Shown here piece by piece: positions 16,946-41,599 of a stretch of 64,000 nucleotides of DNA (position 1 is the stretch's first letter; the number at the start of each line of letters is the position of its first letter). The notes under the pieces were generated by a model. That model made no database searches. It had not been told where the DNA came from and worked only from the letters and a program-made list of their open reading frames with translations. The stretch comes from Octopus vulgaris (taxonomy: Eukaryota). The stretch spans positions 8,990,001 to 9,054,000 of the forward strand of contig OX597821.1 in the NCBI GenBank assembly GCA_951406725.2, written 5' to 3'. The translations under genes and the position numbers were made by a program.

Positions 16946-17046
16946 GCATATATATATATATGTAGGTCCCGGGTTGAGTCGGGGTTAACCACAGTAAATA
17001 AGGTACTCAATACATAGCGGAGTAAATTAATTTATTTTATAGAAGG

Positions 17047-17097
17047 AGCTTCTACAGGACTAGAACTGTTTCATTCAAATGAAATCATCAGGAAGCC
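17047..17097 (-). ncRNA. Minimal type I hammerhead ribozyme in a 137-bp (TA)n-flanked cassette (16961-17097)
   Basis: Minus strand: ggcttc-CUGAUGA-uuuc auuu gaau-GAAA-cag uucuaguc cug-UA-gaagcu; all core residues present, GUA cleavage triplet. Confidence 0.85.
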
Positions 17098-17126
17098 ATA
17101 TATATATATATATATATATATATATA

Positions 17127-18386
17127 TATGAGGTCATCCTGTAAGTTCTGTCCGATTTTACCTTTAATAGTATTTTAGTATTTTAGAATGTCTTAATGGA
17201 ATTAGAAATCATTTTTATGCATTTGTGTACATTTAAACTAATTAAATATTATTTTACAAAATAATAGAATTAAAATTTCGTTGATTAAAACACTTTCTAA
17301 CATGGAAGTATCTAAAGAGCATTTGAGGCACATAATGCGTTATGAGAACAAAAAAAAGGTAACTCTGTAGCCGAAGCAACTGGAAACATACTCTCAGTTT
17401 ATAGGAAAGAATGCTTGAATGAAAGAACTTGCAGAAGATGGCTTGCAAAATTCAGAAGTGGAGATTTCAGCCTTGAAGTTGAAGATTGAACAGGACGTCA
17501 AGTTGAGTTTGATGATAAGCTCTTTGAGGCATTACTTGAAGAAAATCACGTATTATCAGTTGAAGAATTGGCAATAAAGTTTAGTTCAAACCATTCAACT
17601 GTTCATCGTCATGTTCAACAACTTGGAAAGCATCCTAAACTTGGAAAATGGGTGCCTCATGAATTGTCCGAAAGCAACCAAAAATCCTGAGTTGACATCT
17701 GCTCTTCTCTCTATTCTCGCGAACTCATTTCACCCTTTTTGGATAGACTTGTGACCGGTGACGAAAATGGATCTTCTATCGAAATGTTAAACGTCGTCAA
17801 CAGTGGCTTGGTGAAAGGGAAAAAGCTCAACCACAACCGAGAAAGGAACTTCATGGAAAAAAGGTTCTTCTCTCTATCTGGTAGAATTGCAAAGTAGTAA
17901 TTCACGTTGAATTGCTACCACGTAATGCAACAATCAATGCTCAAGTCTACTGAACCAAGCTTTGAAGTAAAAAAGACCCACCTTAGTGAACCGAAAAGGA
18001 GTGATGTTTCATCAGGACAATGCGCGACCCCACACTGCAAAGATTACATCACAGAAGTTCGAAGAGCTTGGTTGGGAAAAAATCCCCCATCCACCTTATT
18101 CTCTCGACCTTGCTCCTTCAGACTACCATTTGTTTCGTACTTTACAGAATCATTTGGGGGACGTAACTTTCGCAAGCCAGGAGGAGGTCGAAACTGACAT
18201 TTCAGAGTTCTTCGCTTTGAAACCCCAAAAGTTTTACATTGATGGGATTTAAAAGCTTGTAAATAGAAGGAAGGAAGTCATAGATAATCAGGGAAAGTAC
18301 ATTGATGATTACATTTCAACTAAATATAAGATTTGATTACTTGTTTTCCTTATACAAAATTCGGACAGAATTTATGGGAACTTATA
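17127..18386 (+). mobile_element. Full-length mariner transposon (DD34D), inactivated transposase at about 17302-18308
   Basis: TIRs gaggtcatcctgtaagttctgtccgatttt / aaaattcggacagaatttatgggaactt in TA context; MEVSKEHLRH, WVPHEL, TGDE, HQDNARPH and HPPYSLDLAPSDYHLF motifs with stops and frameshifts. Confidence 0.92.
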
Positions 18387-18429
18387 TATATATATACATA
18401 TATGTACATGTATATATATATATCTTCTT

Positions 18430-19335
18430 GATAGCACTGCCTAACCAGGGATCTCTGGAAGTTGTCCATAGGTCCCGGCCCGAAATCGTCATGAACAGGC
18501 GTGTCAGGTATTCCTCGTCGACGCCCAGCTTCGCCCAGCTTCGCCCAGCTTCGCCCAGCTTCGCCCAGCTTCGCCCAGCTTCGCCCAGCTTCGCCCAGCT
18601 TCGCCCAGCTTCGCCCAGCTTCGCCCAGAGATCGTCGTCGTACCTCCCCTCCACTAATCACCAATAGAATGCTGATCCGGGACTGCAGATTTGCTCGAGA
18701 GCAACTTGAGACTCGCGGTGCCATCCGCCCTTCCTCGGCCTCTTCTTGATCCACGACTGCAGCTCAGTTATGGAGACAAGCTGCGAGAAAGCGCGCCTCA
18801 CAAACGGCTCACCGTCATCCACGGAGAGCCGGAGATGTCGCAGTCACAGCGCTTGACTGCGCATCATCAACTGCGGCATGCCCAGCTCTTCTTTCAGCGG
18901 GTTTTCGTGGCCACCCTTGTCGTTATCTGGTCCCAGTTCTTCCCCGTTTGGAGGTCCGGACCTCACCAGACGCCGAGGAACATAACCGGTCCGTCCGTCC
19001 AGCATCCAACTACTGAGGCGCTGCCGGACGGCATGGGTTTGCTTCTCCAGGTGCCAAGCACCTGAGCCCACCGATTTTCCAGGTTGATTTTCGCTCCCGT
19101 CACAGCTTCATAGTCTTTCAGCGTCTAGCCTAGCAGCTCGATGTGCTTGTGGCTAGACACTATGACCGTTACGCTCGTCCCGCTCGTCCCGCACCCCAGT
19201 TCTTGGGGGATGCCCCTCAGCGTCGCCAGCTTCCGCAGTAGTGGCTCGAGTGTCAATACGTACAGAAGCGACGAGAGGGGGCATTACTGACGGTCCGAAC
19301 GTACAATGTCGAAAGGTCTCGATAGATGCCCATTC
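18430..19335 (-). mobile_element. Tx1/L1-clade LINE RT and post-RT fragment (GC-rich)
   Basis: LSRPFDIVRSDRQ, VTVIVS...LKDYEAVTGAKINLE, LGTWRSKPMPS...WTDGPVMFLGVW*GPDLQ..KNW. Confidence 0.8.
18522..18627. repeat. 10-bp minisatellite (ttcgcccagc)x~10.5
   Basis: Perfect tandem decamer. Confidence 0.95.
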
Positions 19336-38737: not shown

Positions 38738-38764
38738 ATATATATATATATATGTGATATATAT

Positions 38765-39176
38765 TCTCTTTTCTCTTTTACTTGTTTCAGTCATTTGACT
38801 GCGGCCATGATGGAGCACCGCCTTTAGTCGAGAAAATCGACCCCGGGACTTATTCTTTGTAAGCCCAGTACTTATTCTATCGGTCTCTTTCGCCGAACCG
38901 CTAAGTGACGGGGACGCAAACACAACAGCATCGGTTGTCAAGCAATGCTAGGGGGACAAACACAGACACACAAACACACACACAAACACACACACATACA
39001 TATATATATACATACATATGTACGACAGGCTTCTTTCAGTTTCCGTCTACCAAATCCACTCACAAGGCATTGGTCGGCCCGGGGCTATAGCAGAAGACAC
39101 TTGCCCAAGATGCCATGCAGTGGGACTGAACCCGGAACCACGTGGCTGGTTGCTACTTACCACACAGTCACTCCTA
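38765..39176 (-). mobile_element. tRNA-derived CORE-type SINE with internal (CA)/(TA) tract
   Basis: agaagacacttgcccaagatgccatgcagtgggactgaacccggaacc (reverse CORE plus B box); 3' part tcagtcatttgactgcggccatg also at 24590 and 51060. Confidence 0.85.
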
Positions 39177-40659
39177 TGTATGTGTATGTATGCGCATGTA
39201 TGTATATATGTGTGTAGGTATGTATATGTAGGTAGGCATTTATGTACACATGTATGCATGCATGTGTGCATGTATGTATTTATAAGCGTATGGATGCGTT
39301 TATATGCGTATGTATGTTTATATGCACATATGTCTGTATATAGGCATATGCGTTTATATATGCGGGCAGATATTTATGTGTGTTTATGTGTACTGAAGTA
39401 CGTTTATATATGTGTGTCTGTGTGTACATAGTTATGTATACGTTTATGTGAAAGTGCGTACATTTATGTATGTATGCATATGTATGCATATGTGTGCATA
39501 TGTGTAATTGTATGTGTATATGTATGTATATATATATGTATATATGTGCTTGTAGAGAGAGATATATACATAAGTATAAGTGGATGAGGCGGAAAGGGAG
39601 TGAGAAAACATGTGTGTTTGTGTATGCGTATGAGTGTGCGTGTGAATGTGTGTGTGTGTGAGTGTGTGCGTTTGTATCCGTGGGTAAAGAAATAGAAAGG
39701 AAGGGAGAGGGGAGCGGTAGATGGATTTCATTTTGGCCTGCAGGAACCCTGGGGAGTTCTAAGAACATTTGGCGTTTGTCTACTCGAGCGCCACTAAATG
39801 AGTGTCGGCGGGTAGGTAGGTCATATATTATACCTTTATGAGTCTGAAGACGGTCAAGAGAAAATAAAAATAAAAATAAAAATAAAATAAGGGAGGGAGA
39901 TGAGGAGAGAAAAATAAAAATATATATATATGTATGTGTATATATGTATGTATATATATATATGTATATATGTGTATATATATGTATGTGTATATATATG
40001 TGTGTGTATGTGTGTGTATATGTATATATACATATATATGTGTGTGTGTATGGGTGTGTATATTTATTTATATATATATGTGTAGATATATGCGTGCGTG
40101 TGTTTGCGTGTTGGCATGTATGTGTATGTGTATTTGTATATATATATGTGTGTATGTATATATGTGTGTGTATGTATGTATGTGTATGTATGTGTATGGG
40201 TATATATGTATGTATGTGTATATATATATATGTGTGTATATATATATGTGTATATATATATATATATATGTGTGTGTGCTAGTGTATTTATATGTATTTA
40301 TGTGTGTGTCTGTATGTATATACATGGGCATATGTATATGTATGTGTATGAATATTCGTATGTGTATGTTTGTGGGTTTGTAAGTATATTTATTTTATAT
40401 GTTCTTTTATGTATACTTATCTACTTCTTCCCTCAACTTAATAACAACAACAACAAACTGACTAAAAGCGATAGTCTTCTAATTTACCTAAAACTCTATT
40501 CAATAATTCTATTTATTCATTTATTTACTTTATCACTGACTCTTTTGACCACTCCCCTAAGAAAGAAAGTTTGTGCCCTGCTTACCCAGAAAATGTCCCC
40601 CACCACCACCCCATTAAATCTGCCTAAATGTATAAATGCCAAGACTTATTTCGACAGCA

Positions 40660-40710
40660 AGCTTCCTGATGATTTCATTTGAATGAAACAGTTCTAGTTC
40701 TGTAGAAGCT
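40660..40710 (+). ncRNA. Minimal type I hammerhead ribozyme, same family as 17047-17097
   Basis: agcttc-CUGAUGA-uuuc auuu gaau-GAAA-cag uucuaguu cug-UA-gaagcu; 6-bp stem I; predicted cleavage after A40704; followed by ctataaaataaat and (TA)n. Confidence 0.88.
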
Positions 40711-41599
40711 CCTACTATAAAATAAATAAATAAATATATATATATATATATATATATATATATATATATATATATATATGCATACCTGAAAATAGAATTA
40801 GATCTTATTTCGTTCTGTTTCTAATTACGTTGTGCAAATCCTTCATTTAAAGTAGTTCTGAAATGGGATCAATTCTTTGAGAAACCACCATCAAATGTCG
40901 GATAATGAAAAGAATATGAAATGTGGAATTCTGCATGAATATTTCCGCTTTTATATCAAATATTTTACTACACTCGAATATCTGTTCTGATACATATTTT
41001 TCGAGGACAATTAGAGAGATACGTAAAAAAAATATTTATTCTTTTAAGACGTAATCAAACGCTAATCGTTATGCAAACAAGAGCCCATCTATAAATATTT
41101 TCCGCACTTGGATTAAAACACTAGACTACGTATCCAAGAATTTTATTTATTCGAAACATAGAAATTAGTCATCTGAGTTTTGACAATTGGAGTAACAATA
41201 AGTTGTCTCCCTGTTATAACTACTTTTAGTTAACTGAGAGTTAATAAAAGATCTATACGTACCAATAACGTTTTCATCAATGGATCGCTGCATTTCTGCT
41301 TTTACGTTCATGTCTAAGTTGAATTTCGATGTCTGTAAAGGTTTTCGAGTTTGTATGTATTCCCCACAAGAATATATCCAAAAATTATTGCAAGGATCCT
41401 CACTGGTGTTTAATTTATTCAGTACATTATGAGCTGGTAAATTTCAAATAATTACAGCAAAAATATAATAAAACCCATACAGAGTTCATGTTGAATTTAA
41501 TGTTAATATATTGCAGAAAATATTATATTTTTAAATGTATAAACATTATTATTATAATATAGGTTATTGTATTTCATGTTGTTCTTTTAGTATCAGCTG

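Follow-up and report, generated by a model that had tools for sequence, protein, structure and literature searches.

Two type I hammerhead motifs in Octopus vulgaris DNA, carried by an abundant (TA)n-associated repeat of probable Penelope-like origin

We analysed a 64,000-nucleotide (nt) stretch of Octopus vulgaris DNA (assembly GCA_951406725.2, contig OX597821.1, positions 8,990,001 to 9,054,000 of the forward strand; hereafter the window, in whose numbering all positions are given), which carries two near-identical type I hammerhead ribozyme motifs on opposite strands. Hammerhead A (17047-17097, minus strand) and hammerhead B (40660-40710, plus strand) lie in copies A and B of a repeat that is abundant in Octopus and has several subfamilies. 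We consider it probable that both copies are 3'-terminal (pseudo-long-terminal-repeat, pseudo-LTR) remnants of a 5'-truncated coding Penelope-like retroelement that inserts into (TA)n and probably belongs to the Hydra clade. A Penelope-like origin in either form, as a truncated coding element or as a non-autonomous unit, is very likely, and on the features set out below the Hydra clade is a fairly likely parent.

The hammerhead motifs and their repeat family

In copy B, helix I consists of six Watson-Crick pairs (40660-65/40705-10) and leads into CUGAUGA at 40666-72 (C3 = 40666). Helix II opens with U40673.U40684, followed by 3 base pairs (bp) and an AUUU loop, with GAAA at 40685-88; helix III has 3 bp plus the A15.1-U16.1 pair and closes an 8-nt loop, UUCUAGUU, with H17 at A40704, after which the cut is predicted. 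Copy A has the same build on the minus strand (C3 at 17091, H17 at A17053, predicted cut after A17053), and its helix I is made of five Watson-Crick pairs and a G.U, 6 bp in all. All 12 core letters (C3 U4 G5 A6 N7 G8 A9, G12 A13 A14 A15.1, U16.1, H17) are intact in both copies, and three helices of 6, 3 plus U.U, and 4 pairs with the open end at helix I make both motifs type I. The two ribozymes agree at 49 of 51 nucleotides (2 differences), with 4 differences in 72 when the common downstream stretch is included; BLASTN aligned copy A with copy B at 68 of 71 positions identical (E 2e-28).

A strict hammerhead descriptor matched the window twice and each of 100 dinucleotide shuffles not at all. 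The bare CUGANGA...GAAAC pattern was without significance on its own, 9 of 100 shuffles reaching two matches. Folding energy was ordinary (z -0.07 and -0.69 for the two motifs) and neither hammerhead matched an Rfam model at gathering score, a partial Hammerhead_3 match below threshold (14 bits, E 1.6) being returned for copy A only; the identification thus rests on the core and the helices. Relaxed-descriptor matches at 11993 and 58729/63027 were dropped because they have no helix II, and C/D small nucleolar RNA matches from the Rfam search were judged to be chance.

An earlier note, drawn from the letters of the window, had described these two hammerheads as core-intact, nearly identical, on opposite strands, beside (TA)n and with a U.U pair at the base of helix II. 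All of this stands, and the U.U pair is usual in published Hydra-clade ribozymes (14 of the 25 families tabulated in PMC8557442). The motif search that it had foreseen succeeded with the strict descriptor and fell short with the Rfam covariance models. Its word "minimal" has to go: a minimal hammerhead is one whose helix III is absent or has 1-2 bp (PMC4209133), whereas helix III here has 4 pairs and a real 8-nt loop.

Copy B (40466-40732, plus strand) comprises an AT-rich stretch resembling a 3' untranslated region, the ribozyme and a short 3' end, and passes via (TAAA)n into (TA)23 (40734-40779, plus strand). Other copies, seen in contigs, have (TA)n adjoining 40466 and 40732, and the element also extends 5' to at least 40380. 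Copy A is cut off exactly at the 5' start of helix I and lies between (TA)16 (17098-17129) at its 5' end and (TA)7 (16948-16961) at its 3' end; (TA)n therefore stands at three of the four ends of the two window copies. The longer 3' end of copy A (16962-17046, minus strand) has 21 nt in common with B and then an optional 64-nt tail, which carries a TTGAGYAC motif present also behind Hydra-type ribozymes. The 3' ends thus lie 22 nt (copy B) or 86 nt (copy A) past helix I. Both copies are non-coding and solo, with no tandem array in the window.

Part of copy B was contained in the contig sets of 20 of the 24 listed sequencing runs, and four runs (X1, X2, X10 and X11) were aligned at 80% likeness to a reference consisting of copy B 40380-40733 (354 nt), with three species labels represented. 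The contigs fitting this reference numbered 1424, 3441, 65 and 169 in the four runs, and the commonest identity band was 90-95% in three of them and 95-99% in X11. Summed contig depth, which was read for its shape and not taken as copy number, stood in X1 at 2.7 thousand (40440), 31 thousand (40466), 0.24 million (40550) and 0.58 million (40620), dipped where the strand before helix I varies and peaked at 2.2 million on the ribozyme. Among the loose contig ends listed (24 of 130), TA-rich ends lay before 40466 in all four runs (9, 8, 2 and 4 contigs) and (TA)n ends behind 40732 in three (18, 51 and 7 contigs), a tail continuation like that of copy A was found in 12 X1 contigs, and an inverted ribozyme stood directly upstream, as a fold-back, in 14 plus 4 X2 contigs (18 in all). 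At least three different 5' strands lead into an unchanged helix I in the contigs. No head-to-tail joint of the unit was seen in the contigs of the four runs, among which short ones may miss joints.

With a variant defined as a letter at ≥5% in contigs, there were none at the 38 core and helix positions (Fisher p 0.006), two at the 13 loop positions (N7 and loop II) and 28 at the 194 upstream positions. The core and stems are thus kept better than the flanks, as the earlier note had expected, and the pattern supports, without proving, selection acting on the hammerhead fold. Two points speak against such selection: the whole 51-mer differs from the upstream stretch only at p 0.053, and the contig data pool subfamilies and drop rare variants, having missed a C at 40699 that is known from copy A. 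As for the nature of the family, the proposal of a mobile, ribozyme-bearing, (TA)n-associated repeat of Penelope-like type holds, but "non-coding" and "young" go beyond what the data show for the family as a whole. Copies A and B are non-coding, but both resemble the truncated 3' part of a longer element; simple youth is not borne out, given the 5 of 194 upstream positions at which copy B departs from the majority letter in all four runs, the 90-95% identity band and the three species labels.

Parent element, predicted cleavage and a possible cycle

Graded 5' loss, fold-backs, an optional tail and microsatellite targets together form the signature that has been described for Penelope-like elements (PMC8557442). 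Copies A and B and the contigs show a ribozyme in a 3'-terminal repeat, 5' truncation, inverted copies and an optional tail, the last being 64 nt long in copy A as against 30-40 bp in print. Both copies also have the (TA)n insertion and the hammerhead build of the Hydra clade, a build that is typical of that clade and not exclusive to it. In the ribozyme table for the clade, an ACAG/CUGU helix III occurs in 4 of 25 families; the families with this helix III or with the U.U pair nearly all target (TA)n, and one entry comes from Octopus (PMC8557442).

To these features a metagenome scan added two contigs in which this ribozyme build is joined to Hydra-type reverse-transcriptase/endonuclease frames. 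A relaxed pattern was run over 45 of 64 metagenome parts, where full flanks were obtained for 80 loci, and over viral contigs. It matched 136 times in 134 loci, and 21 of the matches fold as hammerheads. The Hydra-type profile, made from 59 homologues, matched two of the 134, L055 and L017, both among the hammerhead-folding loci. L055 is a whole element in which two identical ribozymes, 2847 nt apart, flank a 713-amino-acid frame with RWK, CxCX5C, CxxC and CxH motifs; Pfam and PDB searches did not recognise the frame, and its assignment rests on the motifs and on at least 3187 homologues, some labelled GIY-YIG or PF26215. L017 carries an endonuclease end and then a ribozyme with a 3-bp helix II and a U-rich tetraloop as in copies A and B, and its sister copies end just 5' of helix I near TA-rich tracts, like copy A. 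Of the protein features that define the Hydra clade (RWK, DKT, CxCX5C, no CCHH), motifs were seen in L055 alone. The TTGAGYAC motif lies 3' of the ribozyme in L017, L055, Hydra-2_Amil and copy A. Its chance of occurring in the tail is ~0.003 for a motif chosen post hoc, and the sharing would be an unlikely coincidence even with that proviso. The exact family pattern had no match in viral and prokaryote contigs, and the CUAG-loop pattern had none in metagenome and viral contigs.

Two further observations came from these loci. With an E-value of 1e-20 as the limit, a protein search from L055:600-2738 returned at least 3187 proteins. Almost all of them are unnamed and come from short contigs of metagenomes or sequencing runs, which suggests that there are many more Hydra-type elements than the 27 described families. 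L048/L049, a single contig, repeats a 3.1-kb unit in tandem, and every unit holds a hammerhead and a 929-amino-acid reverse-transcriptase (RT)-like frame that neither Pfam nor the Hydra profile recognised; it is possibly a divergent Penelope-like lineage.

Several results weigh against a coding Hydra-clade parent. The X1 loose-end consensus (agreement 0.65) is without TTGAGYAC, and the tail's likeness to L055 is weak, since 77 of 2000 shuffles and 64 of 1984 window stretches score as well. The upstream region has no likeness to L055 (176 of 500 shuffles score as well), and the ribozyme build also flanks the non-Hydra frame of L048/L049, so that it is not clade-specific. Furthermore, no RT or GIY-YIG frame is joined to copy A or B in the window or in the contigs, whose ends show at most 30 letters. 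Finally, the sharp depth step at 40466 fits a discrete short unit equally well.

This last point bears on the foremost alternative, that a self-contained, non-autonomous unit of ~270 bp (40466-40732) makes up the family. Such a unit would be a dispersed derivative resembling a retrozyme or short interspersed nuclear element (SINE) and would borrow a Penelope-like protein in trans; of the readings considered, this one comes nearest to the earlier note. We judge it unlikely. It would account for the tenfold depth step at 40466, for the TA-rich loose ends in all four runs and for the non-coding character of both window copies; its size fits animal retrozyme monomers (PMC7229834), and retrozymes have been proposed to stem from pseudo-LTRs (bioRxiv 10.64898/2026.07.22.740005). 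However, no head-to-tail joint was found in the four runs, the element runs on beyond 40466 as far as the 354-nt reference reaches in contigs from X1, X10 and X11, and it is truncated coding elements that show graded 5' loss, fold-backs and an optional tail. A bolder version appears less likely still: a free-standing ~270-bp ribozyme SINE, derived from a Hydra-clade element and present in tens of thousands of Octopus copies, whose enlarged, near-palindromic loop III would allow monomer cutting, whose sense intronic copies would cut host pre-mRNAs, and which selection would bias towards antisense positions such as that of copy B. Were it true, the family would be a genome-wide transcript-trimming mutagen.

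No frame of the truncated coding element that we favour is linked to the copies in the window. Pfam was run on 248 stop-to-stop frames of ≥55 amino acids, satellite and low-complexity frames excluded, and found no RT and no GIY-YIG domain among them, the only matches being mariner/Tc1 pieces and a weak M13 match. Profiles detected two decayed Hydra-type pieces on the plus strand: the C-terminal part of a Penelope-like endonuclease at 23751-23975 (independent E-value 1e-7), not continuous with A or B, and part of a reverse transcriptase at 57460-57956 (independent E-value 6e-14), not linked to either. The presence of these pieces and of a Naiad 3' end elsewhere in the window counts in favour of the truncated-element reading. 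Two candidates were rejected. The stretch 39662-39838, which by eye resembled an endonuclease tail, gave no matches in a search and none with the Hydra profile, and the single repeat-protein match of an open frame running into copy B was spurious.

Hammerhead cleavage is predicted to be weak. In a fold-population model that omits tertiary terms and the core G.A pairs, helices I and III of copy B form in 16-44% of the population and the full active fold in 0.3-0.7%; for copy A in its own context the active fold is predicted at 2e-5, a hairpin over the cut site out-competing it. These values also count against the favoured reading. Nearest-neighbour folding favours a helix II register that absorbs the GAA of the core; monomer cleavage is possible, though helix II prefers this wrong register in the model. 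Self-pairing of helix III between two molecules is predicted at -14.2 and -12.8 kcal/mol per duplex, as against -2.0 and -1.4 for the hairpin, and since the duplex is far stabler, tandem transcripts would favour the dimer. A dimer preference of such hammerheads in tandem transcripts is reviewed in PMC6765202. Copies A and B cannot dimerise within one transcript because they lie on opposite strands. A predicted extension of helix I (40646-40725, plus strand) pairs 40646-40652 with 40719-40725 across a 7x8-nt internal loop, and the majority letter T at 40652 gives it a seventh pair; such an extension would account for the sharing of the A-rich stretch that follows the ribozyme.

Another alternative is that the repeat is real but that its hammerhead has decayed or lacks catalysis and persists for some other function, such as binding a protein. 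The preferred helix II register is in line with this, as is the report that ribozyme mutants of an Anolis element were without effect on insertion in vitro and that cleavage needed protein (PMC11167929). We give it very little credence, since all core letters are intact, the sole core variant falls at the free N7, and the U.U-closed helix II of the axolotl ribozyme HHR_Amex2 does cleave, at 22% per hour as a monomer and more as a dimer (PMC7229834).

A cycle for the family can be proposed by analogy with the Penelope-like protein that nicks AT-rich DNA and begins reverse transcription at internal sites 3' of the ribozyme (PMC11167929). A tandem parent copy would be transcribed, and its RNA would be trimmed by the ribozyme; a monomer would do this weakly, and dimer formation by way of the near-palindromic helix III, or assistance from the protein of the element, would improve it. 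The RT/GIY-YIG protein would nick a TA tract, and reverse transcription would begin shortly 3' of the ribozyme, either 22 nt or 86 nt past helix I; the first start would yield the short end of copy B and the second the tailed end of copy A. Copying would mostly stop early and leave ribozyme-proximal fragments, sometimes as a fold-back. The solo copies A and B are probably inert passengers.

A neprilysin-like gene and neighbouring repeats

A host neprilysin/MMEL1-like gene occupies 24619-50557 on the minus strand, with exons at 50557-50450, about 45924-45883 and 41434-41263, a damaged one near 37586-37549 and the last at 24720-24619. The last exon is identical to Octopus proteins and matches neprilysin structures; the others were mapped with the O. 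sinensis protein XP_036361321.1, which ends at 24619, and residues about 200-731 (the middle exons) are absent across an N gap at 37244-37343. Four AATAAA hexamers (24569-24174) follow the stop. In the exon at 37549-37715, a (TA)n tract and repeat sequence have taken the place of the 5' half, and the reading frame is shifted against that of the O. sinensis protein; the gene copy may therefore be a pseudogene or misassembled.

Copy B is intronic and antisense to this gene. Copy A is on the gene's strand, but it lies beyond the 3' end of the gene, at 7522 nt from the stop and 7077 nt from the last AATAAA hexamer. The automated O. vulgaris model P0001 (CAI9726471.1) splices the last exon to 13120 and so spans copy A; it skips the real stop codon and ends in translated satellite. 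The strand of copy A and the span of P0001 are what could be cited for the recruitment of one copy in processing or terminating the neprilysin-like transcript, an idea that we find scarcely credible: the model is faulty at its 3' end, the O. sinensis protein and the hexamers place the end of the gene well before copy A, predicted folding hides the cut site of copy A in a hairpin, and copy B is antisense in a gene that looks damaged in the assembly. The earlier note's suggestion that copy A could cut the host pre-mRNA fails on the same grounds, the gene stopping 7.5 kb before it.

Other repeats surround the copies and the gene. A decayed mariner with terminal inverted repeats and a broken transposase (17130-18382, plus strand) adjoins copy A, to which it is unrelated, and the (TA)16 tract also forms its end. 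The stretch on the other side of copy A, which had no Pfam match, resembles a Tc1-type relic by eye. The endonuclease piece at 23751-23975 lies 650 nt behind the stop of the host gene on the opposite strand. A 66-bp satellite (25991-37243, ~170 copies) fills an intron up to the assembly gap and is translated in one public gene model, and short dispersed copies of it occur at 8655, 11467, 12931 and 13137. Between (TA)n tracts at 37713-38737 is a complex fold-back repeat with arms of 328 and 221 nt that are 99% complementary, in which neither a ribozyme core nor a Pfam match was found.

A second fold-back element, at 46502-47011 between two (TA)n tracts, bears on its plus strand a third hammerhead-like motif (C3 46820, H17 A46877), which is unrelated to the other two. 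This motif has a 3-bp helix I, a 39-nt helix II region and, as helix III, the palindrome CGAUCG; its mirror copy on the minus strand is decayed. The element is probably a second Penelope-like family. It adjoins a stretch at 46130-46464, with (TA)n on both sides, that by eye is the 3' end of Naiad_Obim.

Comparison with known systems

Hammerheads in Penelope-like elements, the (TA)n preference and the presence of such elements in Octopus are already published; what is new here is the family, not the concept. Recently active Penelope families have been reported in O. vulgaris (PMC13282606), and hammerheads have been counted in the giant squid genome (PMC6962438). We found no published description of the ribozyme of copies A and B in a search confined to papers, and repeat libraries (Repbase, Dfam and sets deposited elsewhere) may already contain it as a Penelope family; the word "ribozyme" does not occur in the main text of the O. 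vulgaris repeat paper. An abundant family with several subfamilies would permit a clean test of what the ribozyme does for such elements, a point left open in PMC8557442 and PMC11167929, and would also permit a test of whether sense-strand intronic copies are purged.

Naiad elements (Naiad_Obim, Naiad_Ovul) share the (TA)n target and the host with copies A and B, and the Naiad-like 3' end lies in the same window. Unlike our copies, Naiads are without canonical hammerheads, and 11-nt stretches of our ribozyme were absent from the portion of the supplement compared with them. Animal non-LTR retrozymes (Cervera and de la Pena 2020, PMC7229834) are likewise non-coding, low in GC, ~270 nt long and provided with a type I ribozyme, and HHR_Amex2 has the U.U at helix II; they are defined by tandem repeats, each with a ribozyme, and by abundant monomeric circular RNA, whereas the window shows no tandem array and the contigs no head-to-tail joint.

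The minimal hammerheads of metazoan Penelope-like pseudo-LTRs (Cervera and de la Pena 2014, PMC4209133), a body of work with which Lunse et al. is grouped through its citation in PMC6765202, are closer in several respects. They have a palindromic loop III, number thousands per genome and are mostly solo with some opposite-strand pairs, as here, and low activity with dependence on dimers is expected of them too. Their helix II has 7-8 bp and their helix III is slight or absent, in contrast to the short helix II and the 4-pair helix III, closable as a monomer, of copies A and B.

The Hydra-clade elements (Craig et al. 2021, PMC8557442), which include Hydra-1_Obim of Octopus bimaculoides, differ from our copies in several ways. 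The 8-nt, near-palindromic loop III compares with 1-3 nt in all 25 families of the published table, and the ribozyme of Hydra-1_Obim is unlike ours in sequence, both of which count against the clade as parent; furthermore, our helix II has only 3 bp and our ribozyme is known here without a linked open reading frame. The likenesses are a type I ribozyme near the 3' end, the U.U base of helix II, the ACAG/CUGU-A helix III, the (TA)n target, the host genus, and the truncation, fold-backs and tail seen in Penelope-like elements.

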